From NCBI GenBank assembly GCA_963789955.1, contig CAWBMV010000020.1, forward strand, positions 64,001-128,000: 64,000 bases of DNA. The letters run 5' to 3'. The notes under the pieces are model-generated. The model saw only the letters and a list, made by a program, of their open reading frames with translations. It had not been told where the DNA came from and ran no database searches. This document shows, piece by piece, positions 44,532 through 62,082 of the stretch (positions within the stretch are counted from its first letter, which is position 1; each line of letters opens with the position of its first letter). The position numbers and the translations under genes were made by a program. The stretch is from an uncultured Candidatus Rokubacteria bacterium (lineage in GTDB: Bacteria > Methylomirabilota > Methylomirabilia > Rokubacteriales > CSP1-6).

Positions 44532-44537
44532 GCGAGC

Positions 44538-44804
44538 TCAGCGCTTGGGGGCGCGACCCGCTCGGTACGCGGCCGTGCCCGCCCGCACGCCGACGCGGAC
44601 GCTGCGACTCAGCAGCGCCGCCTGAGCGACGGCCTCGCGCACGCGCGGCTCGGTGCGGCGGATCATCCGCTCGACCTCGACCCGGGTGCGGCGCTCGAGC
44701 CGCCGCATGCGACGACGCGCCTGACCGGTCGCCCGGTCGGCTTCCGTCTTGAGCGTCTTGAGGTGCTTTTGCAGCGCCTTCATCTGCCGCTCGAGATTGG
44801 TCAT
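44538..44804 (-). CDS. Small basic coiled-coil hypothetical protein
   Basis: GAGG RBS and ATG directly after the IOR stop; helical, Arg-rich. Confidence 0.55.
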   Translation of the reverse strand: MTNLERQMKALQKHLKTLKTEADRATGQARRRMRRLERRTRVEVERMIRRTEPRVREAVAQAALLSRSVRVGVRAGTAAYRAGRAPKR

Positions 44805-44812
44805 GGGTTACC

Positions 44813-47800
44813 TCAGAAGCCCAGAGCCCGCACTTCGTCGCGGAAGCGCTGGACGTTGCGGAGCTTGATCTCCTCGTAGCCTCGGATCACATCGGGCAGC
44901 CCGGCAAGCTTCACCGCCCGCTCGTAGCTCTCCGGCGAGAGACCGACCAGCGCCTTTTCGACGAGGGCCCGATACTCGCCGACCAGCTGCCGCTCGACCC
45001 GGCGCACCGCGGCGAACCCGAAGGGATCGAGCGGCGTGCCGCGCAGCACCTTCATGCGGGCCAGCACCTTGAAGACCGAGCCGAACCACGGGCCGAGCTT
45101 GAGCTTCTCCTTGAGACCGAAAGCCCGGAGCATCGGCGGGTGGAGATTGTAGGAGAGCTTCACCCCGCCGGGGAACTCCTCGGCCAGTGCGCGGCCGATG
45201 TCGGGCTTGAGCGAGAGGCGCGCCACTTCGTACTCGTCCTTGTAGGCCATCAGCTTGAAGAGATAGCGCGCGACCGCCTCGGCCAGGCGCGACTCTCCCG
45301 GCACGGTTGCGGCTTCGGCCTCGCGCACGCGCCGGACGAACTGAGCGTACGCGCGCGCGTAGCCCGCGCTCTTGTAGGCGATCAGCTCGGGCACGCGGAT
45401 CTCCAGGAGCCGCTCGAGCTCGCCCGCGCCGCCGACCGAGTCCACGATGGTGCGTGCCTGCGCCGATAGCTCCGGCGCCGTCGCGATGGCGCCCAGGCGC
45501 CGCCGGACCACCGTGCGCGCCCACGCTGGATCCGCCACCAGCAGCCGGCCCACGCGGAACGCCTGGCTGTTCATCTGCACGGAGACGCCGTTCAACACGA
45601 TCGCTTCCTCGATCGCCGCCTCGCTCACGGGCAAGGCGCCCGCCTGCCAGGCCGCGCCGAGCACGATCATGTTGGCCGCCATGTGGTCGTCGAAGAGCGT
45701 CTCGGCCAATCCGAGCGCGTCCAGGAAGACGTTCTCGTCCTTGCGGGTCACGCGATTGATCGAGGTGATCGAGTCCGTTGGCCTCGGGGAACTCGACCGC
45801 CGTCGACGTCACCATCGCGCCGGTCGGCACCTGGCTGGTCGAGACGATCGCGATCGTGCGCTCGGGGCGCGCGTGATCGAGGTTCTGCGGCGAGGTCGCC
45901 ACGAGGATGTCGAAGCCGAGATAGCAGTCCGCGGAGCCGGCCGCGATCTTGGACGAGGCCTGCGTGGCCCGGTCGAGGATCTTCAGATGCGAGACCACCG
46001 GCCCGCCCTTCTGGCTCAGACCGGTCTGATCGAGGCCGCGCACGAGCTTGCCGTCGAGGAGCGCGGCGGTGCCCAGGATCTGGTTGACCGTGACGACGCC
46101 GGTGCCGCCGATGCCCATCATGAAGACGTTGGCCTCGGCCGGGACCTTGGCGTCCGGCTCGGGCAAGGTCCGGTCGACCTTGAAGACCCGGCGCTCCTTC
46201 TTTCGCGGATCCGCGAGCGGCACCACCGTCAGGAACGACGGGCAGTCACCCTTCAGGCACGAGTAGTCCTTGTTGCAGGACGACTGATGGATCTGCGTCT
46301 TGCGCCCGAACTCGGTCTCGACCGGATGCACCGACAGGCAGTTGCTCTTCACGCCGCAGTCGCCGCATCCCTCGCAGATCGCCTCGTTGATGAAGACGCG
46401 CATCTCGGGATCGGGCAGCCGGCCACGCTTGCGCAGGCGCCGCTTCTCGGCGGCGCACCGCTGGTCGTACACGAGGGCCGTGACGCCGGGGATATCGCGC
46501 AGCAACCGCTGAGCCTCGTCGAGCCGATCGCGATGCCACACCTCGACGCCGGACGCCCACGCGGTGCCTTTCGGATACTTGTCGGGCTCGTCGGTCATCA
46601 CGATGATGCGCTTGACGCCCTCGGCGGCGATCGAGCGCGTCAGCTCGGGCACCGGCATCGCGCCCGCGGCGTCCTGCCCGCCCGTCATCGCCACCGCCGA
46701 GTTGTAGAGGATCTTGTAGGTGATGTTGGCGCTCGAGGCGACCGCCTGACGGATCGCCAGGGAGCCGGAGTGGAAGAAGGTGCCGTCGCCGAGGTTCTGG
46801 AAGAGATGCTTCGTCTCGGTGAAGGGCGCGATGCCCACCCACTGCACACCTTCGCCGCCCATGTGCGTGAGCCCCATCGTGCGGCGGTCCATCAAGAGCG
46901 CCATGCCGTGGCAGCCGATGCCCGCGCTGGCCATCGACCCCTCGGGCAGTACGGTCGAGCGGTTGTGCGGGCAGCCCGAGCAGAAGTAGGGCTGACGGCT
47001 CAGGGTCAGCGGCGCGGGCCGCTGGCGCAACGCCTCGAGCAGCGCCACACGCGCGGTGATCGAATCGAGATGGATTCGGCGCTCGAGACGCGAGGCCAGG
47101 ATCTGGGCGATCCGGTCGGCGTCGAGCTCGCTGTCGGCGGGCACGAGCGGACGGCCCTGCTCGTCCTGCTTGCCGACCACCCGGGGGCGCTCGGCCTGGT
47201 TATAGAGGATGTCGCGGATGAAGAGCTCGCAGAACGCGCGCTTCTCCTCGATGACCAGGAGCTCCTCGAGACCCAGGGCGAACTCGCGGACCGTACCCCG
47301 GCTCCATCGGGAACATCATCTCGATCTGCATCAGACGGATGCCGTACTGCCGGAGCGCCGCGTTGTCGAGCCCGAGCTCGGCGAGCGCCTCGCGCAGGTC
47401 GTAGTACGTCTTGCCGGGCGCCGCGATGCCGAGCCACGCGTTCGGCGTCGGCAACGTGATGCGATTGAGCTTGTTCGCCGCGGCGAACGCCTTCGCCGCC
47501 TCGAGCCGCCCGTAGTGGATCTCGCGCTCGGCCTCGAGCCCCCACGGCGGCATCAAGAGCGGGGTCTGCCGCGCCTGCCAGGGCCGTCCTTCATAGAGGA
47601 AGCCCGGATCGGCGATGACGATACGGTCGGGCGCCACCTCGGCCGTGCCGATCTCGTCGGCCACGTTGGTGACGATCTTGAAGCCGACCCAGAGCCCGGA
47701 GTAGCGCGAGAGCTCGAAGCCGAGCCGGCCGAGGTCGAGGATCTCCTGCGCGCTGCCGGGATAGAGCACCGGGAAGAGCGCGTCGTAGAACGCCACTTCC

Positions 47801-48279
47801 GAGTGCGACGGGATCGTCGATGACTTCGAGAGCGGATCGTCGCCGCCGAGCGCCAGCACGCCGCCGTTGCGCCCGACACCGGCGAAGTTCGCGTGCTTGA
47901 AGATGTCGCCGGTGCGATCGACACCCGGGCCCTTGCCGTACCACATGCCGAGCACGCCGTCGTACTTCGGCTGCGGGAACAGATTGGCGAGCTGGCTGCC
48001 GTAGACGGCCGTCGCGCCGAGGTCCTCGTTGACACCCGAGAGGAAGACGACGTTGTGCTGACGGAGCAGGTCGGGGTTCCGCTCCAGGGTGAGATCCAGT
48101 CCGCCCAGCGGCGAGCCGCGATAGCCGGAGATGAGGGTAGCGGTGTTGAGCCCGCGGCGCTTGTCGGCGCGGTGCTGGTCGAGCGGCAAACGCACCAACG
48201 CCTGAATGCCCGAGAGGAAGATGAGACCTTCCTCCTGGCGGTATTTGGCGTCCAGAGTGAAATCACGCTTGATCGCCAT
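44813..48279 (-). CDS. Fused indolepyruvate:ferredoxin oxidoreductase family protein (frameshifts ~47290, ~45770)
   Basis: SGYRGSPLGG, WYGKGPGVDR, FCSGCPHN, TPP motif GDGTFFHSG, ferredoxin CEGCGDC...CxxxDCPSF, GIGGTGV, LMAYKDEYEVARL. Confidence 0.92.
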
Positions 48280-48359
48280 GGGTCTCCTCTCGAAGTGACT
48301 GCACGTATGATACGGGGCGCCACGGGTGGGGCGCAAATCGGTCCGGAGGTGCGAGCGCG

Positions 48360-48782
48360 ATGATCGAGATCAGGCCGTGCCGTCTCGAGGAGTGTGCCGC
48401 GGTGCTGGCGATGTGGGCGCGCGCGGGCGCGATTCCAAGCCCGACCGACACCCTCGAGGAGGTGAGCCACCTCGTGCGCGAGCACGCCGACTCTCTCCTC
48501 GTCGCGATCCGCCAGGGTTCCATCGTCGGAAGCATCATCGGCGGATGGGACGGCTGGCGCGGCAACATCTATCGCCTGGCGGTCGCCCCGGAGGCCCGGC
48601 GGGCCGGGCTCGCGCGGCGGCTCGTCGACGCCGCCGAGCGCATGCTCGTCTCGAAGGGCGCGCGCCGGTTCTCAGCCCTCGTCGAGCGCCACGAGGCTCA
48701 CGCGGTCGGTTTCTGGGACGCCCTCGCGGACCGTGGCTGGCACCGCGACGAGCGCATGATGCGCTACATCAAGATGGCCTAG
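48360..48782 (+). CDS. GNAT N-acetyltransferase
   Basis: GWDGWRGNIYRLAVAPEARRAGLARRL, AVGFW. Confidence 0.88.
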   Translation: MIEIRPCRLEECAAVLAMWARAGAIPSPTDTLEEVSHLVREHADSLLVAIRQGSIVGSIIGGWDGWRGNIYRLAVAPEARRAGLARRLVDAAERMLVSKGARRFSALVERHEAHAVGFWDALADRGWHRDERMMRYIKMA

Positions 48783-48850
48783 CCGGCGGCTGGAAAAGGC
48801 CCATCTGCTACGTTGGCGCCCTCGTAGCTGGACCTTTTCCAGCCGCCGGC
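48782..48850. repeat. Long inverted repeat (MITE-like or bidirectional terminator) between convergent genes
   Basis: Perfect 18-bp arms GCCGGCGGCTGGAAAAGG / CCTTTTCCAGCCGCCGGC, plus inner GCTACG/CGTAGC. Confidence 0.8.
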
Positions 48851-48867
48851 CGGTCTGCAGGCTTCGG

Positions 48868-49338
48868 CTAGGTCGGGCGCCACAGGCCGCGGTGGGCGCC
48901 GCGTGCTTCGCGCTGGAGCTTCATGAAGAGGTCCTGGTGTCGCACGTTCGGCGGGACCGTCATGACCTGGGCATAGCCGAGTCGAAGCAGCTCCGCGTTG
49001 ACCATCGTGTTGCCCACCCAGACGTAGGCCAGGAGCCGCCCGTAGCGATCCCGAGTGCGCACGTCCAGCTCGAGACGGACGTGGTGGCCATCGACGAGAC
49101 GGCGGTTCACCTCGGCCGCTTCACGACCGCCCGGCTCTTCGCCCTTGATCGGATGGTGGATCTCCGGAGAGTTGACGCCGATGTAGCGGATCTTCTCCAC
49201 GCGATCGCCGAGCTGCACATAGATCGTGTCGCCGTCGACGACCTTGACGACCGTGCCTTCGATCGAACCGGCCGCTGCCGAGCTCGCCGCGAGGAACAGG
49301 AGGAGCGGAACGAGAAGATGAGCTCGGCGGAGCGCCAC
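48868..49338 (-). CDS. Secreted thermonuclease (SNase) family protein
   Basis: Signal peptide; VVDGDT, IRYIGVNSPE, DRYGRLLAYV, GLW. Confidence 0.92.
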   Translation of the reverse strand: MALRRAHLLVPLLLFLAASSAAAGSIEGTVVKVVDGDTIYVQLGDRVEKIRYIGVNSPEIHHPIKGEEPGGREAAEVNRRLVDGHHVRLELDVRTRDRYGRLLAYVWVGNTMVNAELLRLGYAQVMTVPPNVRHQDLFMKLQREARGAHRGLWRPT

Positions 49339-49401
49339 GCCGACACGGTGTCACCGCGGGTCGACGGGTGTCAAGAATTGGAGACGGCGAAGCGTGGATT
49401 G

Positions 49402-49641
49402 CTACTGGACGCGGAACATGGCGTAGCCGAGGGACCTCAACTGCGTGTCGACGAACGGCTGATGGCGGCGATCGCTGCTTCTCCGCTCGCCGGTGTCCCT
49501 GTTGGCCTCGCCCAGGCGACGGTCACGACCGGATCGACGATCCAGGAAGACCTCGACGTTTTCTTCGGCGGCGAACTGCCGTGTGAGGTACTCACACAGG
49601 CTGGCCTGGTCGCGCGCGACGATGAAGTAGTGCCGAGTCAT
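49402..49641 (-). CDS. Small Arg-rich protein, 'FIV...FLDRR' family, copy 3
   Basis: MTRHYFIVARDQASLCEYLTRQF...VEVFLDRRSGRDRR...ERRSSDRR...LRSLGYAMFRV. Confidence 0.75.
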   Translation of the reverse strand: MTRHYFIVARDQASLCEYLTRQFAAEENVEVFLDRRSGRDRRLGEANRDTGERRSSDRRHQPFVDTQLRSLGYAMFRVQ

Positions 49642-49681
49642 GACTGCCACACGGCAATTTTCCACGAAACGCGCGCGAGGG

Positions 49682-50201
49682 TCAAGGTTGGCGGAGGCGT
49701 CCGAGGGCCCGTCGGGCCTGTCGCGCTTTCTTGGAAAGTCGGCGGGGGTTACCGCGCTTCTCCCGACCCGGCTCATCGTCGGAATCGTCCTTTGAATCGG
49801 GCGTATCCGCGCCCGACGAGCTTTCCGGAACTTCCAGCGCTTCCAGAAATTGCTCGGCCGTCAGCACCGCGCTCCCGGCCCGCCGGGCGGCGTCCTGGAC
49901 CTTCCGATCCGAGCTGACGACGACGGCGCCGTTTCGCAGCTGCCGCGCGAGCCGCATCAGCTCATCGTCGGCCGTCAGCGGCGGGCGCGAGAAGACCACA
50001 CGAATGCGTCCCGGCGGCGGCGTGCCGCCGGAGAGTCGCGCCCCGTCGAACACGACGGTGAACTCGTCCTTCGGGGCGCGGTCGGCCCGCGCGATGAGAG
50101 TGCACGAGCGCTCGCCGTCCCGCTTCCAGGCTCTCGGCTTCTCGAGCCCGGAGGTCCGGATCGCGTCGGATGAGGTTGTAGCCATCGACGAGCCAGCGCA
50201 T
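49682..50201 (-). CDS. NYN (YacP-like PIN fold) domain protein, frameshift ~50110
   Basis: WLVDGYNL, VVFDG, VVFS...TADD, VVSSDR. Confidence 0.85.
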
Positions 50202-50242
50202 GAGCCAAGTATCCTATTCTCTCCTCCGATACGGAACGATCC

Positions 50243-51421
50243 ATGGACGATCCTTCGCTGATCCTGGTCGGGGGCGGCTCCCTGACGCCCGAGTCCGCGC
50301 GGTCCCTTCCGCCCGGCGGCATCGTCCGATTGATGGTCTATCGACCCTCGATCCCGCCGGTTGACGTGGGTGACGTGGTAGAGGTCATCCCGGGAGCGCG
50401 CGGACGCGTCGGTGACCTCGTGCTCTGTGTCGACGCCGATCGATGTGAGCTCGGACGGGTTATCAGTCATGACGGACCTTCCGTCGTGATCGAAGTCGGC
50501 GCGGAGGGGATTCGCCACGCGCTCGGCGCCGGTGCCGTCCTCGGTGTCGCGGCGGCTCTCGAGCAGGGCGATCTGCTGTTCGACCTCCAGCGCGGACGCT
50601 GGCGCGCGGCGGGCCGCCTCGCGGCGACCGTCCCGGCCCGGCTCGGCGGCTTCATGACGGCCCTGTCGTGGCTGGAGCGCCTGCGCCGCCCATTGTTCCC
50701 GCCGCTCTTCATGGGCAGCGAGGCGCAGCTGCTGGAGCGCCTCACCGCCGCCTACGACACTGAGGTCGAGGTCACCGGCCGCGAGACGGCGCTCCTGCCC
50801 GAGGAGCAGACTTTGCTCGAGCATCATCTACGGCCAGGCCAGCGGCTGCTCGACGTGGGCTGCGGGGCGGGCCGCGAGGCGATCGGCTTCGCGCGCGCAG
50901 GGCTATCCGTCGTCGGGATCGACGTGGCGCCGGCGATGGTGGCCCTGGCGCGCGCGCGGGCGCGGCAGGCGGGACTCACGATCGAGCTCGCAGTTGCCGA
51001 GCCTCTGACCTTGCCCGCGAACTTCGGCCGGTTCGACGCGGTCTACTTCAGCCCGGGGATCTACGCCCACATCCCCAGTCGAGAGCGCCGCGTGCGGACG
51101 CTCTCGCGGCTACGCGAGATGCTCGCCCCAGGCGGGCTGATCGTGGTCGGTCCCGTTCTCGCCCCGACCCTGCGAGCGTTCTCCCGCGCCCGTCTCGTCG
51201 ACGCGCTCCGGAGGGTTGGCCGCCGTGCGGGCCTCCACCGGCTGGCCGAGCCAGGCGACCGCTTGTATCGCGGTCACGCGCTCGACCGCGCCGCGACCTC
51301 GCACCGCTACATCCACTACTTCAGCACCAGCGAGGAGGCCGAGATGGAGATGGGGGAAGCCGGCCTCGCGGTGACCGAGCGGCTCGACGTGACCTGCTGG
51401 ATCCTCCGCCCGCGCAGCTGA
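50243..51421 (+). CDS. Degenerate S24/S26-fold domain fused to a class I SAM-dependent methyltransferase
   Basis: Motif I LLDVGCGAGR, GIDVAPAMV, FDAV, LAPGG. The N-terminal ~140 aa aligns by eye with the S26 peptidase at 55733-56178. Confidence 0.8.
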   Translation: MDDPSLILVGGGSLTPESARSLPPGGIVRLMVYRPSIPPVDVGDVVEVIPGARGRVGDLVLCVDADRCELGRVISHDGPSVVIEVGAEGIRHALGAGAVLGVAAALEQGDLLFDLQRGRWRAAGRLAATVPARLGGFMTALSWLERLRRPLFPPLFMGSEAQLLERLTAAYDTEVEVTGRETALLPEEQTLLEHHLRPGQRLLDVGCGAGREAIGFARAGLSVVGIDVAPAMVALARARARQAGLTIELAVAEPLTLPANFGRFDAVYFSPGIYAHIPSRERRVRTLSRLREMLAPGGLIVVGPVLAPTLRAFSRARLVDALRRVGRRAGLHRLAEPGDRLYRGHALDRAATSHRYIHYFSTSEEAEMEMGEAGLAVTERLDVTCWILRPRS

Positions 51422-52597
51422 CTAGCGAAGCTGGCGTGCCGCCAGCCAGCACACTCTCAGCGGATGCACGGCGCGATAGAGCGGCACCTGCCACGGCTCG
51501 AGCGCGTAGTGGTGCCTGAGCCACGTGGCCGAGGGAAAGAACGTCCACGCGAAGACCCGCATGACGTCGGACGCGCGGTCCATCAGGAGCGTCTGAGCCG
51601 GATAGACGCGCGTGTCGTCGAGCGCGCCCGCGAGACTCGGTGGCGCGGACGCGCCGATGCGCTCCGCGACCGCCGCGCGGCGCCATCGGCCCCGCTCGAG
51701 GCGTTCGAGGAGCCTGGCAGGGAGCGGCGTGTCGAACGAGCGCGTGACGACACAGAGCGTCCAGCCGATGAGCGTCCGGACGCGCCAGCGGTCGGCCTCC
51801 TTCACGAGGAGGTCCCAGTCGAGCTCAGCGGCAAATCGGCGGACGACCGCATCGATATCGGCGTACCAGAGCGCGCGCGCGAAGTCCGAGCCGAGCGTCA
51901 GGTGCAGGACGAGGTGCAGCAGCAGATCCTCGGGCGAGAGCATGAGGCTCTGACCCTCGGGCGTGAGGAGCGGCCGGGCCCGACTCCACATCCCCTCGTG
52001 GTCGACCTCGACGACCCCCTCGAATCGGAGGTAGCGCGCGGCATGCCAGTGGAGATCGATCCGCGTCCCGTCGCGCACGAGCTCTGCGAAGCTCCGCGAC
52101 TCGCCGAGGAGATCGGCTCCTTCCCCGGGCGTCCGATATCCGAGGGCCCGCAGCGTGGCGAGCGCGACAGCGCGTTCTGTCGGACGCACGAGGAGGTCGA
52201 CGTCCGCCATCGGTCGGAGACCAGGCTCGGCGTAGACGACATTCGCGAGCGCCATACCCTTGAGGGTGAGTGTCACGACACCCGCCTGGCGAAGCGCCGC
52301 GGTCGCTTCGCCCCAGTGACGCGCGAGCACGGCGTTCGCGGCCCAGACGGCCCGCGCGACCTCGGTCAGACGACGACGCGCCGGAGTCGGCAGGCGATCG
52401 AGCAGATCGAGGCGATGAAGGTGGGAGCGGAGAAGAGGCGCCGTGCCTTCGCGAACCGCGAGCTCGACGAGAGCGGGCCAGTCGACGGCGCCGGACACGA
52501 GGGCCGCGAGCTCGACATCACCCGAGGATTCGACATGGCTGCGCGCGCCCAGGAGCAACAGTCGCGCGTCCGGATAGAGCTCGGCGCGCGGGAGCAT
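51422..52597 (-). CDS. Nucleotidyltransferase family protein (type found in lasso/RiPP clusters)
   Basis: TLKGMALA..VY...GLRPMADVDLLV, IDLHW, EDLLLHLVLH, WYADI. Confidence 0.87.
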   Translation of the reverse strand: MLPRAELYPDARLLLLGARSHVESSGDVELAALVSGAVDWPALVELAVREGTAPLLRSHLHRLDLLDRLPTPARRRLTEVARAVWAANAVLARHWGEATAALRQAGVVTLTLKGMALANVVYAEPGLRPMADVDLLVRPTERAVALATLRALGYRTPGEGADLLGESRSFAELVRDGTRIDLHWHAARYLRFEGVVEVDHEGMWSRARPLLTPEGQSLMLSPEDLLLHLVLHLTLGSDFARALWYADIDAVVRRFAAELDWDLLVKEADRWRVRTLIGWTLCVVTRSFDTPLPARLLERLERGRWRRAAVAERIGASAPPSLAGALDDTRVYPAQTLLMDRASDVMRVFAWTFFPSATWLRHHYALEPWQVPLYRAVHPLRVCWLAARQLR

Positions 52598-52602
52598 GCC
52601 GC

Positions 52603-52764
52603 CTACGACGTCGTGCTCGTCCGACTCCCCTTGCCCATACTCGTCCGCTGCGCGTTGCTGCACGTCCCGTTGGTGGCGCGGCAGCACGTGGTCGTGTCGG
52701 CGCCGAAGATACTACTCGGCTCGAGCATGGGCTTCTCGTAGGGCCGCTTGTCCTGGGTTGCCAT
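52603..52764 (-). CDS. Putative RiPP precursor peptide, 53 aa (MATQDKRPYEKPMLEPSSIFGADTTTCCRATNGTCSNAQRTSMGKGSRTSTTS)
   Basis: Strong RBS GGAGGAG before ATG 52764; YxxPxL leader motif; Cys/Ser/Thr-rich C-terminal half; lies between the rSAM and nucleotidyltransferase genes. Confidence 0.8.
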   Translation of the reverse strand: MATQDKRPYEKPMLEPSSIFGADTTTCCRATNGTCSNAQRTSMGKGSRTSTTS

Positions 52765-53899
52765 CGTCAGCTCCTCCCGCGGTACGGATCTGGTAAAGAC
52801 GGCGCTGGGCGCCGGCAAGCGTGCGCGCCCGCTCGTGGCATTGCTTCCACTCGCCCTCGCCGCGTTCGAGCAGGTTGTCGCCATGGCAGCGGTTGCAGAA
52901 CCCGACGACCTCGCAGGAGGAGCACTCCGGCAGGTCGGCGTAGTGCTGGACCGACAGAAGATCCCGGATCGCCGGCGGCGGGGCCGTCCAGAGCTCGCGG
53001 AACGGCGTTTGCCGCACGTTGCCCATGGGGACGCGAAACGCGATGCACGGGAACACGTTGCCGTACGGATCGATGCAGCAGCCATTCGTCGCGGGTCCGC
53101 ACGTGGCGCGCTGGCGGGCAACGTCCTCGGGGCGGCCTTCCTGCGGCTCGAGCTGCTCGCTCCACGTCGACTCGCGGAGGTACCGGAGCAGCTCGTCGCC
53201 GTCGAGCTGATACTCCTGCGGCACGTGACCATCGCGCGGCACAGCGCCGTCGATCCGGGGGCTCACCTCGCAGCTATAGGTGTGAGTGAACACGCCGAGG
53301 TCCTTGCCGAGCCGGTCGAGCTTCGCGAGGCCGTCGATGTTCGGCTTCATCACGACGGTTTTGAGGTAGACGCGCAGGCCGTGGCGCTGCAGGCGCTCGA
53401 CCGCGGCCATGAGCCTCCGGAAGGAGCCCGGCACGCGGGTGATCGCATCGTGCACCGCCGGATCCGCGGAGAAGATCGACAGCTCGACGGTCAAGGGCTC
53501 GAGCGCCGCCAGCCGCTCGACCTTCGCCTCTGTGAGGCCGATCCCGTTGGTGAAGATCCGGTACGCGAAGCCGCGCCGGCGCGCATGCTCGGCAATGTCG
53601 AAGAAGTCGGGCCGTACCATGACCTCGCCGCCCGAGAGCGTCAGATAAAGCCCGCCCATGCCGGCCAACTCGTCGAGGAGCCTGCGGATCTCGTCGAGCG
53701 TGAGCTCGTGGCGGCGCACCTCCTGCTCGCGACCGTGCTCGACCACGCAGTAGCAATGGACGCACTGCTCGTTGCACCGGTAGGTGAGCTCGAGATGGAC
53801 GTTGAGGGGCGTCCGATTCCGGTCCGCCTTGGCGCTGATCAGCGCCATCAGCGAGGCATCGCCGAGTCCCGCGTTCTGAGCGCAGCCTTCGAAGATCAT
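52712..53899 (-). CDS. Radical SAM/SPASM domain peptide maturase
   Basis: CNEQCVHC (CxxxCxxC), SGGE, FTNG; SPASM C...IDPYGNVFPC...CSSCEVVGFCNRC...C; ATGA-coupled to the PqqD gene. Confidence 0.93.
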   Translation of the reverse strand: MIFEGCAQNAGLGDASLMALISAKADRNRTPLNVHLELTYRCNEQCVHCYCVVEHGREQEVRRHELTLDEIRRLLDELAGMGGLYLTLSGGEVMVRPDFFDIAEHARRRGFAYRIFTNGIGLTEAKVERLAALEPLTVELSIFSADPAVHDAITRVPGSFRRLMAAVERLQRHGLRVYLKTVVMKPNIDGLAKLDRLGKDLGVFTHTYSCEVSPRIDGAVPRDGHVPQEYQLDGDELLRYLRESTWSEQLEPQEGRPEDVARQRATCGPATNGCCIDPYGNVFPCIAFRVPMGNVRQTPFRELWTAPPPAIRDLLSVQHYADLPECSSCEVVGFCNRCHGDNLLERGEGEWKQCHERARTLAGAQRRLYQIRTAGGADDGNPGQAALREAHARAE

Positions 53900-54192
53900 C
53901 GGCTCTCTCCCTTGCGCCGGCGCTCGATGGAGACCAGCTTGGCGTCGGCGAGCCGTTCGAGGAACTCGATCGCGTCGGCACGAATCGTCGGCTCGGGCGC
54001 TTCGAACTCGGCCGCGAGCACGCCGACGATCTCGTCCACGCTCCGCGCGCCGTCGCACAGATCCCAGATCCGCGCACCGACGCTGTTGAGAGGGTAAAGC
54101 AATCCGCCTTTGACGTCTACGACGAGAGCCTCCGTGTCGAGCGTCCGCCACGGCACCGATTTGCGCACGGGAAACGCGTCAGTCCCGTCCAT
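53896..54192 (-). CDS. PqqD family RiPP recognition element (RRE)
   Basis: LYPLNSVGARIWDLCDGARSVDEIVGVLAAEFE...IRADAIEFLERLADAKLV. Confidence 0.92.
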   Translation of the reverse strand: MDGTDAFPVRKSVPWRTLDTEALVVDVKGGLLYPLNSVGARIWDLCDGARSVDEIVGVLAAEFEAPEPTIRADAIEFLERLADAKLVSIERRRKGESR

Positions 54193-54982
54193 CGAGATAG
54201 CTCCAGAGCGCGGGCTCCGGTTTGAACGCGAGCTCCCACGTGGGCACCGTCGCGACGAGCGTGGCGAGCGTCTCGAGGAGTCGCGTGGTCACGCGGTCGT
54301 CGCGTTTGGGCAGCATGACCTCCGGGAACGCGCGGGCGACCGCCTCCGAGGCCGGCAGTCGCCGGCGGGCGAAGTGATCGGCCTTGCGAAGAAAGCACAG
54401 ACCACGAATCGGGGCGCGCTCGTTCGTGCGAGCCATGGACGGGCCGCCGGATCCATAGAAGGGCGTCGCGCAGGCCTCCCAGCCTCGCGGGCCGGGACGT
54501 AGCGCGATCGTCTCGTCGTTGAGCACGGGCCGGTCGCCCGCGAGGCCGGCGATGGTGGTCTTGCCGCTGCCCGAGGGACCTGAGAAGACCCACGCGCGAC
54601 CTCCGTCGACGACGGAGGACGCGTGGAGCAGGACCCCACCTTTTTGCATGAGGAGGAAGCTGCACAGGAGCCGGAACAGGTCGGGATTCAGCGCCGGTCC
54701 GGGGCCAGCACGGAAATCCACCCGGCGGCGTCCGAGATCGCCGTGCGCTCGAGAAGGATGGCTTGCGAGCGCGAAGCGACCCCCCTCCCACGTCGCCGAC
54801 GGGCGCGGCGTGCGGCCCGGACGATAGCGCTCGGTCGCCCGCACGCGTACTCCGAAGGTCGGCGCCCGTCGTGACAAGAACGGACCGTATCGATCCTCCA
54901 CCCACGCGCGCGCGGTGGCGCCGAGACCCGCGACGCCGAACACGACGCCCGCGACCTCGATCCGCGGAGTCCGTTCAGCCAA
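54179..54982 (-). CDS. HprK-related P-loop kinase (ScmC-like/RiPP-associated)
   Basis: GVLLHASSV, GPSGSGKTT (Walker A), VLNDE, TPF.G. Confidence 0.85.
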   Translation of the reverse strand: MAERTPRIEVAGVVFGVAGLGATARAWVEDRYGPFLSRRAPTFGVRVRATERYRPGRTPRPSATWEGGRFALASHPSRAHGDLGRRRVDFRAGPGPALNPDLFRLLCSFLLMQKGGVLLHASSVVDGGRAWVFSGPSGSGKTTIAGLAGDRPVLNDETIALRPGPRGWEACATPFYGSGGPSMARTNERAPIRGLCFLRKADHFARRRLPASEAVARAFPEVMLPKRDDRVTTRLLETLATLVATVPTWELAFKPEPALWSYLDGRD

Positions 54983-55736
54983 CGGCCACGCCTTCGGTCA
55001 GCGGATTGGACGCGTCAAGCCCGCGGCAGCGCAGGACCGCCACGACGCGGGTCGCGAGGTCGAGGGTGCGCTCGACGGCGGGGCGCCGCCGGTCGGCTTG
55101 CCAGATCGAAGGGAGCAATGCGCGCACCGCCTCGGCCGCACTCAGCGGTTCCTGGCCGCCGGGCAACCCGAGCGTCGTCGCGCGCCAGCCGTTCGCAGGC
55201 CGCGGGCCGTCGCCGACGAGAAACGGCGTCACAAGGACGGCGACGTGGTCCGCCGTGGGCCTCACCGCAAACCAACCAGCAGTCGCGGACGAAGGTATCG
55301 CCCAAGCCGGCAGCCCGCAGATAAGAGTCGCTGATTCGGTAGGGCCGAAGCAGGCGGCCTGAACGAGCAAGGTCTCGCACTCGGCGAGCCACAGCGCGGT
55401 CAGGGTCCGCATGAGGCCGGCGACGTCGAATCCCGCCGCTATCTTGACGGTGACACGACCGCCCGGCACGTCGACGACCGCCCGGTAGTAGCCCGTCGAC
55501 ACGCGAAGATTCCGACCGCGACGGCTCACGGTGGCCGCGTCGGCGACCGTGTCGCCGACCGATCGCCAGCCGTGGCGCCCGTCGCGCTCCTCGTAGTCGA
55601 TTCGCACGGTCACGTCGGGCCGACGGCACGTGATGAATGCGGGATGGTTTCGAGCCCAGAACCCGGGCTTCGGGAAGGGACAGGACAGCTGAAAAACGAT
55701 ACCCGCGACGTCGACCTTGTCGGTGTGGCGCCTCAC
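54975..55736 (-). CDS. Degenerate HprK-related paralog lacking the P-loop
   Basis: Same N-terminal layout as 54179-54982 (VDVAGIVF vs IEVAGVVF), LLVQAAC in place of LLHASS, TPF and AEAVRALLP retained, no GxxGxGKT. Confidence 0.6.
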   Translation of the reverse strand: MRRHTDKVDVAGIVFQLSCPFPKPGFWARNHPAFITCRRPDVTVRIDYEERDGRHGWRSVGDTVADAATVSRRGRNLRVSTGYYRAVVDVPGGRVTVKIAAGFDVAGLMRTLTALWLAECETLLVQAACFGPTESATLICGLPAWAIPSSATAGWFAVRPTADHVAVLVTPFLVGDGPRPANGWRATTLGLPGGQEPLSAAEAVRALLPSIWQADRRRPAVERTLDLATRVVAVLRCRGLDASNPLTEGVAVG

Positions 55737-56178
55737 GCCCGCGGCCGCGCGCGGCAGCGCGTACCAGCCACGCCGCCGCTCCGAAGGAGCGCGCGGCCGT
55801 GAAGATCGCCAGCGCCCGTTGGCGGAGCGTCGACAGGTCGACGGTGACGCCGCGACGCTCGAACGCCGTCACGATGCCGAGGATCTGCGGCGCGGTCACC
55901 ACCTCCGGCCCGACACCGCGATTGTCCGCGCGGGTCAGCAGCGCGGCGCCGCGCCGGCCGATCACGCGGTGACACACGAGGGTGCCCTCGCTCTCGTACG
56001 CGAGCAGATCGCCGAATCGCGCAGGCGCCGGAGGCGTGACGAAGATCCACGCGCCCGCACCGAGCAGGGGTCGCATGCTCCGGCCGCGTATCGGCAACCA
56101 GACCGACTCGCCGGCCCCGAGGCGTTCGCGGAGGATCTCGGTCACGACCGGTCGCCAGACGGCGGCGGGGCTCGACAT
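55733..56178 (-). CDS. S24/S26 family peptidase (signal-peptidase-I-like); 3' end uncertain (likely indel)
   Basis: GRSMRP (catalytic Ser), GD, VCHRV, RADN, ILGIV. Confidence 0.8.
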
Positions 56179-56229
56179 ATCGCCTCATCCTACCCCGAAT
56201 CATCGCCGCCCTCTGCTACCATCGCGCGC

Positions 56230-57846
56230 GTGACCGCCGCGACCCGCTGGCCCGAAGCCCACGCGTCGCGCGGGCTCGTCGCGACCCCGCACGCGCTCGC
56301 TTCCGAGGCCGGGCTGGCGATCCTCGCGCGCGGCGGCAACGCCGTGGACGCCGCGATCGCAGCCGGCGCAGCGATCGCCGTCGTCTATCCGCACATGAAC
56401 GGGGTCGGCGGGGACAGCTTCTGGCTGATCTACGACGGGCGCCATCGCCGGCTGCGCGCGCTGAACGCGGCGGGCCGATCGGCGGCGGCGGCCGATCTCG
56501 AGCAATATCGCGCGCGCTTCGGCGTAGCGATTCCGGTGCGCGGCGGGGTCGCGGCGCTGACGGTGCCCGGCGTCGTCTCGGGCTGGTGGGCGGCCCACGC
56601 GCTGAGCCGCGACTCGCTGGGCTCCCCCATCACCTGGAGCACGCTGCTCGAGGCGGCGATCCATCACGCGCGCGACGGCTTCCCGCCGTCACAAAGCCAA
56701 GGTCGCGAGACCGCCGACGCCACGGATCTCTTCGGTGACGCGACGCCGGCCGACCTCCGCGAGTCACTCTGGCCCGTCTTTCATCCCGAGCTCTTGAAGC
56801 GCGAGCGGTTCGTCCAGGCGGATCTGGCGTCGACCCTGGAAGAGATCGCCCGGAGCGGGGGTGACGCGTTCTATCGCGGCGCGCTCGCTCGCCGCCTCGC
56901 TCGAGCCGCTGGTGCCGCCGGCAGCCTCCTGACCGCCGACGATCTGGCGCGCCACCGGCCCGAGTGGGTCGAGCCGCTGCGCATTCCCTACCGCGGCGGC
57001 GAGGCCACGAGCTTTCCGCCGCCGACCCAGGGTTTCGCCGCGCTCGCGATCCTGTCGCTGCTCGAGGGGTTCGAGATCAAGTCCCTGGCCGAGGCCGACT
57101 ACGTGCACCTCGTCGTCGAAGCGACGAAGCTCGCGTTCGAGGACCGCGATCGCTATCTCGCCGATCCGACGGTCGCGTCCGTTCCGGTCGCCCAGTGCCT
57201 CGATCCGGCGCGCCTCGCCGAGCGCCGCCGGCGAATCTCGCGACGGGCCGCGATGCCGGCCGCCGGACCGGCCGCGAAGGGCGACACGATCGCCATCGTC
57301 ACCGCGGACGCGCAGGGGAACGCGGTGTCACTGATCCAGAGCCTCTACTGGGAATTCGGCTCGGGCGTGGTCGCGGGCGACACCGGCGTCCTTCTTCAGA
57401 ACCGGGGCGCGTTCTTCTCGCTCGACCCGGGGCACGTGAATTGCCTGGCGCCGCACAAGCAGACGGCGCACACCTTGATCCCGTCCATGTACCTCGTCGA
57501 CGGACGTCCGCGTCTCGTCTACGGCACGATGGGCGGAGAGGGCCAGCCGCAGACGCAGGCGGCCCTCGTCACGCGCATCGTCGATCGCGGACTCGGTCCA
57601 CAAGCGGCGGTCGAGGCGCCGCGCTGGCTCTTCGGGCGAACCTGGGGCGAGGAGACCCGCTCGCTGAGGCTCGAGGATCGATTTGGCGACGACGTCCGGG
57701 ACGCGCTTCGCGAGCGGGGGCACGAGGTGGAGATCGTCGAAGGTTGGAGCGATCTGATGGGCCACGCGCAGGTCATTCGTCTCGACGCGACCGGACTCAC
57801 CGGCGCTTCGGATCCACGCGCCGACGGGGCGGCTCTCGGCTTCTAG
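56230..57846 (+). CDS. ggt: Gamma-glutamyltransferase family protein
   Basis: GGNAVDAAIA, GVGGDSF, TVPG, PPPTQG, autocatalytic Thr in GDTIAI, LQNRG, GTMGGEGQPQ, SDPRADG. Confidence 0.92.
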   Translation: MTAATRWPEAHASRGLVATPHALASEAGLAILARGGNAVDAAIAAGAAIAVVYPHMNGVGGDSFWLIYDGRHRRLRALNAAGRSAAAADLEQYRARFGVAIPVRGGVAALTVPGVVSGWWAAHALSRDSLGSPITWSTLLEAAIHHARDGFPPSQSQGRETADATDLFGDATPADLRESLWPVFHPELLKRERFVQADLASTLEEIARSGGDAFYRGALARRLARAAGAAGSLLTADDLARHRPEWVEPLRIPYRGGEATSFPPPTQGFAALAILSLLEGFEIKSLAEADYVHLVVEATKLAFEDRDRYLADPTVASVPVAQCLDPARLAERRRRISRRAAMPAAGPAAKGDTIAIVTADAQGNAVSLIQSLYWEFGSGVVAGDTGVLLQNRGAFFSLDPGHVNCLAPHKQTAHTLIPSMYLVDGRPRLVYGTMGGEGQPQTQAALVTRIVDRGLGPQAAVEAPRWLFGRTWGEETRSLRLEDRFGDDVRDALRERGHEVEIVEGWSDLMGHAQVIRLDATGLTGASDPRADGAALGF

Positions 57847-59058
57847 CTCAGCGGCAGCTCCCGCTCGAAGACCGTGAACGGGAGAGCGGCGCGCGGCGTC
57901 GAGGGCCTGGCGGATTTGCGCCTCGCCGCGGCCGGCGCCCTGCTGGAGCAAGGTCTCGAAGAAGGCCACGTAGAACGCGTCCGGCTCGACGACGACGGCC
58001 ACCCGCGCCCGCAGTCCGGTCGCGTCGATCGTCGTCCGATAGGTGAGCGTCGTGCTCTTGCCGGGCATGAGGCGGGTGTCGAAGAGCTCGCGCGAGAGGT
58101 CGAGGGCCACCTCCGCGACCGATGATCTGCTCCCGCCGGCTGCCGGCGACGACCTGGCCGGTATCGTCGACCAGCTCGAGCGCTCAGGACCACGCGCGGC
58201 GTGACGTACGTCGGCAACGCGTGGCCGATGCGCGTGCTGCTCACCCGGAGCGTGACGAGCGCGAGCTCGCCGGGGCGATAGCGCGGGGCCCCCGCCTTGG
58301 CCTCGATCGTGAGCCCGGACCGCACCATGCTCGAGATCGTGGATCCCGCGCCAGCGGTGGCGCCGGTCGGGCATGTGGCAGTCCTGGCACTGCACGCCCT
58401 GGCGCGCGAAGCGGCTCGCCTTCCACTCGTCGTAGGTCGCCTGGAGCAGCTTGCCGTTGAGCGCGAACCCGTCGGGCGTGAACTGGTGGCAGCCCCGGCA
58501 GAACTCGGCCTTGAGGAACGCCGGCGTTCGCGTCACGCCGTTGTGGGGCAAGGTCTCATGCGGGGCGCCGCTCGCCAGCGAGCCGTCTCGCCGGGGCGGG
58601 CCGAAGCGTTCGTGGCCCCGGACGTGACAGCCCGCGCACGGCACGCCCCGGCCCGCGAGCGAGGCGTCGTAGTCCGGGTTCTCGCGAAGCTCGCGGCCCA
58701 CGGCCGCGAAGGGTCCCTGCTCGGCGAGCGGGGCGTGACAGACGAGACACGCGTGCGCCGACGACGGATCGCTCTCCCGCATCTCGACGAGCTGGCCGGC
58801 GACACCGGGTCCGCTCGCGGCGGCGTGCAGGCTCTCGCGCCAGTCGGCGAGCTGCGCGGGATGGCAGGTCCCGCACGACTCCGGCTGGAGCGAGGCTTCC
58901 AGCGGCGAGAATCGCGCCGGCGGCGCGCCTTGCGGCGCCAGCGGCTGGCGCCAGTGCCGTCGGATGAAATCCTGGATCGCGTCGGCGCCGGCGGCCGCCG
59001 CGGCCCCGAGCAGCACGGTCGCGGCCGCCGCGCACGCGAGACGGAAGCGAAGTCGCAT
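57843..59058 (-). CDS. Periplasmic multiheme cytochrome c (5 CxxCH) with C-terminal beta domain; frameshifted 3' part
   Basis: Signal peptide; CGTCH, CLVCH, CAGCH, CRGCH, CQDCHMP. Confidence 0.88.
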
Positions 59059-59137
59059 CGACGGGATGCATGATAGCGTGCGCCGACTGCTGTACAGTAG
59101 GATCCGCAGTCATCCTGACCGCTTCCGGAGAACGCTG

Positions 59138-61695
59138 GTGGATCCGTATCGCCTGCCGCGACACGTGCGACCGACCCGGTACGATCTGCGCCTCGAGCCC
59201 GATCTGGCGACCCTGACGTTCACGGGCGACGAGACGATCACGCTCGAGATCCAGGAGCCGACCGCGGAGGTGGTGCTCAATGCCGTGGACCTCGCGTTCG
59301 GCGAGGCGACGCTCGCGAACGCGCGCGGCGAATCGCTGCGCGGAACGCCGGTCGTCGACGAGGCCGCCGAGCGCTGCCGCATCGCGTTTCCGTCGCAGAT
59401 CGCGCCGGGTACCTGGCGGCTGCGCCTCGCCTTCACCGGCACCTTGAACGACAAGCTGCGCGGCTTCTACCGGTCGAGCTACAAGGATCCGACCGGCGAG
59501 GCGCGGCTGATGGCCGCCACCCAGTTCGAGGCGACCGATGCGCGCCGGGCGTTTCCGTGCTGGGACGAACCGGCCTTCAAGGCCGTGTTCGCGGTGACGC
59601 TCGTGATCGATCCGACGCTGACCGCGGTGTCGAACACGTCGATCGTCGGCGAGCGCGTCGAGCGCGGCCGGAAGGTCGTGACCTTCGCCGACACGATGAA
59701 AATGTCGACCTATCTGGTGGCGTTCGTCGTCGGCGAGCTCGAGGCCACCGACGCGATGATGGTCGGCCGGGCCCCGGTCCGCGTCTGGTGCGTCCCGGGC
59801 AAGCGTCATCTGGCCGCGTTCGGCCACGAGATCGGCGTCGCCTCGCTGCGATTCTTCGAGGAGTACTACGGGCTGCCGTATCCGAGCGACAAGCTCGACC
59901 TGCTCGCGATTCCGGACTTCGCGGCTGGGGCCATGGAGAACCTGGGCGCGATCACCTTCCGGGAGACCGCGCTCCTGGTCGACGCCCGCGCTGCGTCCCA
60001 CTCCGAGCTGGAGCGGGTCGCCGACGTGGTCGCGCACGAGAACGCGCACATGTGGTTCGGCGATCTGGTGACGATGACGTGGTGGAACGGCATCTGGCTC
60101 AACGAGGCGTTCGCCACGTTCATGGAGATCCTCGCGGTCGACGCCTGGAAGCCCGAGTGGCAGCGCTGGACGACGTTCGGCGTCTCGCGCGCCGCCGCCC
60201 TCTCGGTCGACGGGCTGCACTCGACGCGCCCGATCGAGTTTCGCGTCGAGGCCCCGCGCGACGCCGACGCGATGTTCGACGTGCTCACCTACGAGAAGGG
60301 CGCGTCGGTGCTGCGCATGCTCGAGCAGTATCTCGGCGCGACGGTGTTCCGTGACGGCGTGCGCGAGTACCTCCGGCGCCACGCCTACGCCAACGCCGAG
60401 ACCGGCGATCTCTGGGCCGCGCTCGGGCGGGCCGCGAACCAGCCGATCCCCGAGGTGATGGACGCCTGGATCTTCCAGCCCGGCTATCCGCTCGTGAGCG
60501 CCCGGCTCGACGGCAACCAGCTCGTGCTGAGCCAGCAGCGCTTCACCTATTTGCCGGAGCCCCTGCCCGGCTCGACGCCTTCGCCGCGCGAATCAGCAGT
60601 GGCAGGTGCCGGTGCAGGTCCGCTTCAACGCCGCGGGGCGCGTATCGACGGAGCGGCGGCTCCTCGCGGGCGGCGAAGCCCGCGTGCCGGCTCCCGAACG
60701 CCTCGAATCCGTCCTCGTCAACGACGGCGGCCACGGCTTCTACCGCGTCCGCTACAGCGGCGAGCTGCTCGAGCGCCTCCTCGGCGGGCTCGAGCGGCTC
60801 GGCGGCATCGAGCGCTTCAACCTCGTCAACGACGCGTGGGCGGTGACGGTGGCCGGCCACATGGCCGTGACCGACTATCTCGAATTGACCGACGCGCTTC
60901 CGCGGCGAGCGCGATCGCAACGTGTGGTCGGTGCTGATCGCCTCGTTCTCGATGTTGAACCGTATCGCGGAGCCGGCGCAGCGGCCGCGACTCGCCGCAC
61001 TCGTCCGCGACCGCGTCGCGCCGGCCTTCACCGAGCTCGGCTGGACACCGCGAGCCGGAGAAGACGAGCTCACGCGCCAGCTCCGCGGCGACCTGGTGCG
61101 CGTGATGGGCGCGCTCGGCGACGATCGGGCCGTGCAGGCGCGGGCCACCGAGCTCTACGCGAAGGCGGCGGCCGAGCTCGATCCCAACGTCCTGCCCGCC
61201 ATCATCGGCGTGCTCGCGCACGCGGGCGACGGGGCGCGTTACGACGAATTTCTGAAGAAGTTCCAGTCCGCGGCGACGCCTCAGGAGGAGCAGCGCTTCC
61301 TCTACGCGCTGGCCGCCTTCCGCCAGCGCGAGCTGCTGACCCAGACGCTCGCCCGCGCGATCAACGGCGAGTTCCGGACCCAGGACGCACCGTTCGTCGT
61401 GCGCTCGCTGCTCACGTCCGTGTACGGGCGCGAGCTCGCCTGGGAGTTCGTGAAGACCAACTGGGACACGATGGAGCGGCAGTACCCGAAGGCGGGACTC
61501 CGGCGACTGGCCGAGGGCGTCGTCGGGCTCGCGACGCCGGAGCTCGAGCGGGACGTCCACGCCTTCTTCCAGGCCCGCCGGCCCGAGTTCGGCGGCAAGA
61601 CCCTGGAGCAATACCTGGAGCAGCTTCGCATCGCGGTCCGCCTGCGCGAGCGCGAGTCGACGGCGCTCACCACCTATCTGGCGCGATTCGCCTGA
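59138..61695 (+). CDS. pepN: M1 family zinc aminopeptidase with ERAP1-like C-terminus (frameshifts ~60590, ~60900)
   Basis: TQFE..DARRAFPCWDEP, GAMEN, HENAH...NEAFA (HExxH-x18-E), YEKG. Confidence 0.93.
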
Positions 61696-61737
61696 GGGAC
61701 ATCGACGGATCTATCACGACGCCCGCTGGAGCGGGCG

Positions 61738-62082
61738 TTAATCCGCCGCGTCCGGCGCGTAGCGGAGAACTCGTACCTTCTCCATCGTGACCAGACCGCC
61801 CTTCATGAGGCGGTCGATCTCCGGCAGCACTGCCGCCAGATGCTCCTCGCTGTCCACGACCTCGATCACGAGCGGGAGATCCTCCGAGAGCCTCAGGATG
61901 TTCGCGGTGTGGATTACCGAATTGGCGCCGAAGCCGGCGACGCCTTTGAGAACGGTCGCGCCGGCCAGCCCCCGAGCTCGCAGCAGCTCGAGCAGCGCGG
62001 TGTGCAGCGGTCGGTGACCGGCTCGATCGGACTCTCCGACGAACAGGCGCATCAGAACTTGCTCCCCGTCGATCTTCCGCAT
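61738..62082 (-). CDS. DUF190 (PII-like) protein
   Basis: RLFVGESD, GLAGATVLKGVAGFG, LSEDLPLVIEVVD; downstream of crcB. Confidence 0.9.
   Translation of the reverse strand: MRKIDGEQVLMRLFVGESDRAGHRPLHTALLELLRARGLAGATVLKGVAGFGANSVIHTANILRLSEDLPLVIEVVDSEEHLAAVLPEIDRLMKGGLVTMEKVRVLRYAPDAAD

Follow-up and report, generated by a model that had tools for sequence, protein, structure and literature searches.

A candidate radical SAM peptide cluster from Rokubacteria with a methyltransferase that appears to carry a dead copy of the leader peptidase

We examined a 64,000-nucleotide stretch of DNA from an uncultured Candidatus Rokubacteria bacterium (positions 64,001 to 128,000 of contig CAWBMV010000020.1, assembly GCA_963789955.1; hereafter the window), in which eight neighboring genes at 50243 to 56178 had been predicted to form a cluster for a peptide that is made by the ribosome and then modified post-translationally (RiPP). 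These genes almost certainly specify a RiPP pathway. Around a short precursor peptide they combine an S26 leader peptidase, a stand-alone RiPP recognition element (RRE), an HprK-like kinase with a pseudokinase paralogue, a radical S-adenosylmethionine (SAM)/SPASM enzyme, a nucleotidyltransferase and a SAM-dependent methyltransferase, and profile comparison identifies the N-terminal domain of the methyltransferase as a copy of the leader peptidase that has lost its catalytic residues. The family of this cluster spans Rokubacteria/Methylomirabilota and Acidobacteriota, mostly uncultured soil lineages. The closest characterized counterpart of the cluster is the pathway of the linear polyphosphorylated peptide (LPP) clusters, lppA-K-B-S-D-N, of Bacillota (Popov et al., Nat Commun 2026, PMC13381572).

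In the pathway that we propose, to which as a whole we assign a probability of roughly 55%, the RRE would bind the YxxP leader of the precursor, the radical SAM enzyme would link sulfurs of the core cysteines to other residues in thioether bonds, the kinase would put a phosphate on the terminal serine for the NTP-transferase to cap, and the S26 peptidase would cut off the leader. The dead S26 domain would give the methyltransferase access to the peptide. By analogy, such a pathway would resemble that of LPP with a radical SAM step added and a kinase target of the paeninodin type.

A conserved set of genes accompanies the radical SAM enzyme

The profile of the radical SAM enzyme matches 49 of 251 genomes of the phylum, plus many acidobacterial loci, and relatives with 88-96% identical enzymes come mostly from Rokubacteria or Methylomirabilota. 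Co-occurrence was counted with hidden Markov models (HMMs), using profiles built from the same loci. Among 107 radical SAM loci with full flanks, the kinase was present at 107, the RRE at 106, the S26 peptidase and the precursor at 100 each and the nucleotidyltransferase at 50, so that the conserved small open reading frame (ORF) expected by the original prediction is indeed found in homologous clusters. The orthologous radical SAM clade, represented by 14 full-flank loci, retained the kinase, RRE, precursor and nucleotidyltransferase at all 14 and the S26 peptidase and methyltransferase at 13 each. Because of these counts, we assign the S26 peptidase, kinase, RRE, radical SAM enzyme and precursor to the family core, and the nucleotidyltransferase, methyltransferase and pseudokinase to its accessory genes. 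Two further counts were not used family-wide: the pseudo-S26 profile also catches true S26 peptidases, and the methyltransferase count of 22 includes unrelated, unfused enzymes.

The bacterium's own genome contains a second cluster of the same family outside the window (G000:C21, ~84900-91000; loci L018, L020 and L021), comprising an S26 peptidase, an RRE, three radical SAM/SPASM genes, a kinase, a nucleotidyltransferase and a 64-residue precursor with three cysteines that ends in serine. Similar clusters with several radical SAM genes occur at L231 and L234.

The precursor peptide

The precursor gene (52603..52764, minus strand) encodes 53 residues, with a YxxP leader motif (Tyr9/Pro12), a Phe20-Gly21-Ala22 sequence, core residues Cys27, Cys28, Arg29, Cys35 and Arg40, and a terminal Ser53. 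Comparison with 14 relatives gave 203 synonymous and 81 non-synonymous codon differences; of the 347 base changes, 242 fell on the third position of a codon. The AGGAG ribosome site is kept in 14/14; by these sequence measures it is a real gene under purifying selection.

A relaxed search pattern returned precursor candidates in 201 of the 247 loci with a radical SAM match and none in the other 46; those of the Acidobacteriota are located upstream of the S26 gene. The loci include repeats of the same place, and precursors are counted as distinct sequences: 152 candidates, of which three were dropped as false by eye, leaving 149. The pattern required a cysteine and YxxP, so neither counts as an independent finding, and conservation counts overstate the number of events because kin are not independent. 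Outside the pattern, a terminal serine is found in 144 of the 149 precursors (serine makes up 11% of the remaining core positions), a second cysteine in 148 and a Lys or Arg at +2 from the first cysteine in 138. Phe at -7 from the first cysteine (120/149) was partly favored by the pattern; it corresponds in position to Phe-3 of LPP leaders. The last cysteine lies 5-9 residues from the C-terminus in 117 precursors and 18-23 in 25, and the serine stays terminal. The subclade of the window (25 precursors) is distinguished by a Cys-Cys-Arg/Lys start, a third cysteine and a tail longer by about 11 residues. Precursor classes track the radical SAM clades in a quick tree that was limited to family members and a few distant loci and gave long-branch warnings.

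Two precursor genes were seen in the clusters at L094:2912-3436, L116:4852-5342 and L238:7162-7612; the L094 pair has long, aromatic-rich cores with serine still terminal, and the L116 pair ends in cysteine.

Leader recognition and removal

The leader peptidase (55733..56178, minus strand, ~148 residues) is of the S26/SpI type and resembles SEC11 and SipW. It matches Pfam S24 with 25.7 bits, its best PDB matches are SEC11A/C (E 5e-10), and its catalytic residues are well conserved, Ser34 and His70 in 17/17 aligned sequences and Asp85 in 16/17. Very probably, this enzyme is the one that removes the leader.

The RRE gene (53896..54192, minus strand) encodes a PqqD-family protein (PF05402, 70.9 bits), predicted to be of the YxxP-binding type, whose PDB matches are TbiB1, PbaB1 (9x90) and LppB (9x8z). 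Over 29 aligned rows Asp73 is invariant and Asn36 nearly so, and Phe77 is also kept; the spacing of Asn36/Asp73/Phe77 is like that of Asn33/Asp70/Phe74 in LppB, which binds a YxxP leader (PMC13381572). According to the same source, the peptidase LppS cuts after Phe-Glu-Thr, only in the presence of LppB, and contacts both the RRE and the leader in an AlphaFold3 model. Many relatives of the window precursor carry YxxP...FET, and the Phe-Gly-Ala of the window sits in the same register. Given this match to the LPP motif, cleavage after Phe-x-x (Ala22), releasing a 31-residue core that begins with Asp23 (calculated monoisotopic mass 3183.4 Da when unmodified), would be the site that we somewhat favor.

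The methyltransferase and its pseudo-S26 domain

The one plus-strand gene of the cluster encodes an N-terminal domain (50243..50692) followed by a class I SAM-dependent methyltransferase domain (50693..51421) that matches PF13649 with 66.4 bits and contains a DVGCGAG motif (model pLDDT, the predicted local distance difference test, 86.4). Searching whole genomes with its profile gave matches in 28 of the 251 genomes of the phylum, and in 27 of these the gene lies beside cassette genes. On 20 occasions it shares a contig with the radical SAM match at a distance within ~8 kb; of the other eight matches, seven adjoin S26, RRE, kinase or nucleotidyltransferase genes, and the sole unlinked match covers the methyltransferase domain only. 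Fifteen of the 28 genomes had contributed to the query alignment, and 12 of the 13 remaining genomes show the linkage. This rules out a chance neighbor, and on genomic context the methyltransferase belongs to the system, as had been proposed. Its gene lies inside the operon, between precursor and nucleotidyltransferase genes, at L029, L110, L212-L214 and L216; in the WEEDF clade, named for a leader sequence, it stands directly behind the RRE gene, and at L266 all seven genes are on one strand.

What the original prediction overlooked is the nature of the N-terminal domain. Compared with the S26 profile of the cluster by hhalign, the first 124 residues align with 97.4% probability (E 1.3e-11), against a maximum of 3.4% for nine unrelated profiles and ten column shuffles. 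Among 109 homologues of full length, the position of the catalytic His is occupied by His in one, that of the Asp by Asp in none and that of the Ser by Ser in 31, and Gly, Asp and Arg residues of the scaffold are conserved. The profile of this pseudo-S26 methyltransferase is matched by at least 124 clusters formed at 90% identity. The contacts of LppS with RRE and leader in the LPP model give a dead copy of such a peptidase a docking route, and by this analogy the domain is predicted, at slightly short of even odds, to dock on the RRE-leader complex. The same surface could bring the methyltransferase to the start of the core; tentatively, the methyl group may be placed on the N-terminal part of the core.

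Three side observations concern these genes. The operon of the WEEDF subclade starts with S26-RRE-methyltransferase. An extra, frameshifted S26-RRE-methyltransferase module lies a few kb from an intact cluster at L268:6296-8542 and L212:296-2542, which suggests that these three genes move as a unit. Finally, a different, unfused methyltransferase recurs upstream, on the opposite strand, of FET-clade clusters (L220, L222, L227, L233, L236, L241 and L076).

Predicted modification of the terminal serine

The kinase (54179..54982, minus strand) carries LHASS, GPSGSGKTT and LNDE motifs, and the catalytic His, the P-loop Lys and an Asp-Glu or Asp-Asp pair are found in 38 of 39 relatives. Its matches to ScmC and HprK_rel_A/B are weak and below cut-off; ScmC is the commonest match within the kinase family (11/23). 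We predict with good confidence that it phosphorylates the terminal Ser53, which is favored as the target because no other hydroxyl residue is nearly invariant and because it is retained even though its spacing from the cysteines varies. That the serine persists while its distance from the last cysteine changes suggests that it is read from the free C-terminus, as by PadeK, ThcoK and PsmK, which act on a C-terminal serine (PMC9266682, PMC6993621).

Upstream lies the degenerate paralogue of the kinase (54975..55736, minus strand). In 6/6 aligned copies the His, the P-loop and the Asp-Glu pair are lost and the N-terminal part and a TPF motif are kept, which bears out its prediction as a pseudokinase. 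The L212-L215 loci gave no match to it, and L113 has a single intact kinase. There is an even chance that it serves the kinase as a partner specific to its clade, probably in a structural role.

The nucleotidyltransferase (51422..52597, minus strand) belongs to NTP_transf_5, the Pfam family of PsmN and LppN (PF14907, 158.8 bits), and its KG..DxD motif is conserved in 33 of 34 relatives. The bacterium's genome has just two PF14907 matches, one in each of its two clusters of this family. On balance this enzyme would add a nucleoside monophosphate (NMP) or a sugar to the phosphate. The nucleotidylation originally predicted is thus only one of the options; PsmN is linked to a hexose, and LppN gave no visible product (PMC6993621, PMC13381572).

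The radical SAM/SPASM enzyme

The radical SAM gene (52767..53899, minus strand; ~377 residues in relatives) encodes an enzyme in which CxxxCxxC and six SPASM cysteines are invariant over 35 rows and a seventh nearly so; the seven-cysteine pattern was found in 20/20 scorable enzymes of the CC clade. From the sequence, seven SPASM cysteines probably leave one auxiliary site open, and such an open site is associated with thioether-forming radical SAM enzymes. The enzyme scores under the cut-off of each of the 25 NCBIfam families listed, and among PDB entries its clade profile best matches SkfB, a sactipeptide enzyme (E 7e-27). The simplest reading is that it forms thioethers, because the cysteines are shared, aromatic residues and Asp/Glu are often missing (from 83 and 90 of the 149 cores, respectively) and SkfB is the best structural match. 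The number of cores devoid of aromatic residues also rules out aromatic cyclophane chemistry as the reaction of the family. Enzymes of the CC clade and of the FET clade have largely the same six-residue active-site profile, which suggests that they catalyze one reaction. We lean toward thioether formation, and variable acceptors, as in sactionines, are more likely than a fixed acceptor.

In the WEEDF-leader subclade (L228, L229, L232, L242, L243, L245, L265 and L266), the seven-cysteine SPASM pattern is missing from 6/6 scorable enzymes.

Alternative readings

Several observations weigh against the proposed pathway, beginning with the general point that product, enzyme activities and native expression are all predicted from sequence; contigs of relatives from RNA runs span parts of the cluster but may be DNA. 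No ABC or MsbA-like exporter gene is evident by eye among the ORFs at 44000-64000, where the flanks were part Pfam-scanned. The radical SAM enzyme is distantly related to everything characterized, and we do not grade thioether formation higher because cofactor enzymes top its HMM list, all below cut-off (AhbD 123 bits for a cut-off of 500, MftC 121/265, PqqE 103/381, NirJ 113/515), and its active-site profile does not clearly fit a known synthase: the six proximal residues read Y-S-T-S-I/V-A, matching F-F-T-S-H-Q of CteB at 2/6 and, by alignment reading, SkfB at 2/6 and PqqE at 4/6. The enzyme might instead act on the +2 Lys/Arg or on the C-terminal phosphoserine or its cap, by decarboxylation or oxidation, with the cysteines serving as disulfide or metal ligands. 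The greater nearness to PqqE than to CteB is consistent with this, as are the conservation of the +2 Lys/Arg, the ranking of MftC, PqqE and Ahb/NirJ and the presence among the PDB matches of BlsE, BtrN and DesII, enzymes that act on nucleoside or sugar substrates; moreover, the WEEDF clade keeps two precursor cysteines, yet its scorable enzymes are without the seven-cysteine pattern. We nevertheless consider this reading rather unlikely, since SkfB is the best PDB match and the distance of the cysteines from the terminus varies, and the cap is not an obvious general substrate when radical SAM enzyme, kinase and precursor occur together in 57 loci that have no nucleotidyltransferase nearby. Those same loci, in which the nucleotidyltransferase was not found within 7 kb (57/107), make it accessory; in addition, PsmN is required for a hexose on the C-terminal phosphoserine by a route that is unsettled (PMC6993621), and no activity was seen for LppN (PMC13381572). 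As for the kinase, its acidic pair is Asp-Glu in 35/39 relatives and Asp-Asp, as in lasso kinases, in 3, and LppK polyphosphorylates the internal core Ser3 and not the terminus (PMC13381572). A kinase of the LPP kind, directed to a Ser/Thr inside the core close to its N-terminus or to several core residues, would fit the Thr at predicted core position 3 of the window and the Ser/Thr-rich core. Yet this position is Leu in 100/149 relatives, the near-invariant hydroxyl residue is the terminal one, and LppK did not phosphorylate a Ser3Thr variant (PMC13381572), all of which makes an internal site highly improbable.

For the methyltransferase, the profile-profile comparison is the sole basis of the pseudo-S26 assignment, the domain having no match to Pfam S24/S26 models or to solved peptidases. 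The fused enzyme is missing from the FET clade and is therefore accessory. A fold search with the full model covered residues 158-392 only and returned tied class I matches (Z 17-21), among them CypM, DhpI, CgnL and NmbA, and does not tell N-, O-, S- and phosphonate methylation apart. Instead of reading the RRE-leader complex, the pseudo-S26 domain might pair with the active S26 peptidase, which would hand over the new N-terminus, or it might be a remnant of fusion. S24/S26-fold domains such as LexA dimerize, a free N-terminus arises only once the leader is cleaved, and the tied matches include the N-terminal methylases CypM (Z 19.5, root-mean-square deviation 3.1, 197 aligned) and CgnL (Z 18.4). 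Set against these points, WEEDF-clade clusters place the methyltransferase gene immediately behind that of the RRE, and a mere remnant would hardly have been kept in two separate radical SAM clades and 109 full-length homologues with its scaffold Gly, Asp and Arg residues conserved; we hold pairing or a remnant to be less likely than not. The peptide itself might be a tag or carrier, attached by its phosphoserine to a surface protein or to polysaccharide, with no free metabolite. Such a role would suit the capsule loci in which LPP clusters sit (PMC13381572), the secreted beta-propeller/laminin-G proteins or Wza/Wzz genes that often adjoin related clusters and the PMT_2-like gene at L026; it is improbable here, the window and its closest relatives having no such neighbors and the precursor no signal or anchor sequence. 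Returning to the pathway of thioether rings, serine phosphorylation with a cap, leader removal and docked methylation, we regard as somewhat unlikely the larger claim that it defines a new RiPP class, thioether-ringed and methylated with a capped phosphoserine end, in which a duplicated, dead peptidase serves as a second-tier adaptor reading the RRE-leader complex and carrying a fused tailoring enzyme to the beginning of the core, which would be a new principle of targeting.

Cluster layout and sequence quality

All eight ORFs were confirmed where they had been predicted, seven on the minus strand and the methyltransferase gene converging on them from the plus strand, its stop abutting that of the nucleotidyltransferase gene (51421/51422). 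Pfam matches above cut-off were Peptidase_S24, PqqD, Radical_SAM with SPASM, NTP_transf_5 and Methyltransf_25; the pseudokinase and precursor had no Pfam match and the kinase only a weak one to PEPCK_ATP. Catalytic motifs are intact in the S26 peptidase, kinase, radical SAM enzyme, nucleotidyltransferase and methyltransferase. The non-lasso assignment also stands: cyclase and B2 protease are not among the eight genes, and the lasso B2 domain PF13471 was not found in the bacterium's genome, which is 87% complete.

Two of the gene ends, those of the S26 and radical SAM genes, are shifted by insertions or deletions (indels) specific to the window. The S26 frame has no stop of its own here and continues to 55015. 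Two bases of the window, at ~55754 and ~55767, are missing from contigs of three runs and from locus L111, and in relatives the S26 gene is a separate short ORF; because of both findings, we place its end near 55733. The radical SAM frame overruns the precursor start, to 52712; in 4/4 relatives compared and in two contigs of run X5 there is one more base near 52775, with which the stop falls just upstream of the precursor ATG. These three single-base differences are likely assembly errors in an indel-prone assembly, because flanking genes too are split in the window and intact in L022. The flanking genes, which we take from their motifs to encode an oxidoreductase and aminopeptidase N (44808-48336 and 58964-61695), have split frames here and are single ORFs in L022. 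The indel evidence rules out both a 387-residue S26 protein and a radical SAM/precursor overlap as biology.

Sequencing runs contained at most 0.29 of the words. An Rfam scan of 48000-58500 returned no match, and scans for promoters and terminators did no better than chance.

Neighboring genes

Large, probably secreted beta-propeller/laminin-G proteins are encoded within many related clusters or immediately upstream of them (for example L099:3907-6147, L110:1298-4669, L228:3798-6125, L242:7389-10040 and L245:6162-9647), one family in 67 loci; they are missing from the window. Wza/Wzz polysaccharide export genes adjoin the clusters at L213:4374-5534 and L214:12817-15933, echoing the capsule-locus setting of LPP clusters, and at L026 (~10500-12480) a PMT_2-like membrane glycosyltransferase gene lies between the nucleotidyltransferase and methyltransferase genes. 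The same gamma-glutamyltransferase gene is often near cassettes of different subclades (window 56200-57846 and 49682-50201; L076, L223, L227, L228, L233 and L236), which suggests a variable cassette site. A gene that we take to be NYN-like is often found near such cassettes too.

Significance

This family occurs commonly in soil lineages that are abundant and for the most part uncultured, and its clusters couple radical SAM chemistry to a chassis for peptide processing whose first tests date from 2026. The window offers a compact, cloneable system for two questions, namely what PF14907 enzymes produce on phosphopeptides and how tailoring enzymes that have no RRE find their substrates. To the latter, the dead-peptidase methyltransferase is a concrete, testable answer. 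If this is true, the pseudo-S26 domain would be both a portable engineering handle and a marker for tailoring enzymes that Pfam leaves unlabelled.

Comparison with known systems

SynChlorMet, GeoRSP and HPr-rel-A/B cassettes bring PqqD, radical SAM/SPASM and HprK-like genes together, as does the cluster of the window. The SynChlorMet-type likeness of the original prediction did not hold up: the four NCBIfam models score far below their cut-offs (ScmC 16.8 bits for a cut-off of 125, ScmD 27.5/100, ScmE 82.4/400, ScmF 61.3/400), and LPP, not named at the time, is nearer. Unlike these cassettes, the cluster has one radical SAM gene, and no precursor model was above cut-off for 25 family precursors. 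In a literature search that left subscription journals mostly outside its coverage, the gene set with its radical SAM enzyme was not described and no characterized product was found. A term search of PMC7470986, PMC12710340, PMC12257519, PMC10885120 and PMC11285071 gave no mention of the system; the figures and supplements of PMC13381572 and PMC10288494 may list clusters with radical SAM genes.

With sactipeptide and ranthipeptide systems (SkfB, CteB and StsB; PMC10288494) the cluster shares an RRE-associated radical SAM/SPASM enzyme and a cysteine-containing core; it differs in that its enzyme is below all curated cut-offs listed and its active-site profile fits neither CteB nor SkfB well. 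Lasso peptides of the paeninodin and pseudomycoidin type (PMC9266682, PMC6993621) share an HprK-like kinase alongside a precursor whose C-terminal serine is conserved, an NTP_transf_5-type enzyme with DxD and a discrete RRE. Unlike them, the eight genes include an S26 peptidase and a radical SAM enzyme instead of a macrolactam cyclase and B2 protease, and the kinase motif is mostly His-Lys-Asp-Glu, as compared with His-Lys-Asp-Asp in the paeninodin type. We know of no sactipeptide or ranthipeptide pathway that pairs with an HprK kinase, a nucleotidyltransferase and an S26 peptidase.

The likeness to LPP clusters (PMC13381572) extends to an SpI-type peptidase with Ser/His/Asp, a discrete RRE with the Asn/Asp pair and a YxxP leader, an HprK-like kinase with an NTP transferase, a leader ending in Phe-x-x (FET in many relatives) and the lack of a lasso cyclase. 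The LPP leader consensus YxxPxVLxHQxIxFETxxS is departed from in that there is no HQ, Phe-Gly-Ala replaces FET and the leader is two residues shorter; core Ser3 is Thr in the window and Leu in most relatives, with a terminal serine instead; and the MsbA-like exporter of the LPP core cluster has no evident equivalent. LPP products are linear, made by clusters with no ring-forming enzyme, whereas the operon of the window includes a radical SAM/SPASM gene; the word "radical" occurs 0 times in the main text of PMC13381572 and once in its supplements, as the name of a column in a domain matrix. Beyond what is described for LPP, the present cluster adds a cysteine-containing core, a pseudokinase and a pseudo-S26 methyltransferase, and its family is found in other phyla.

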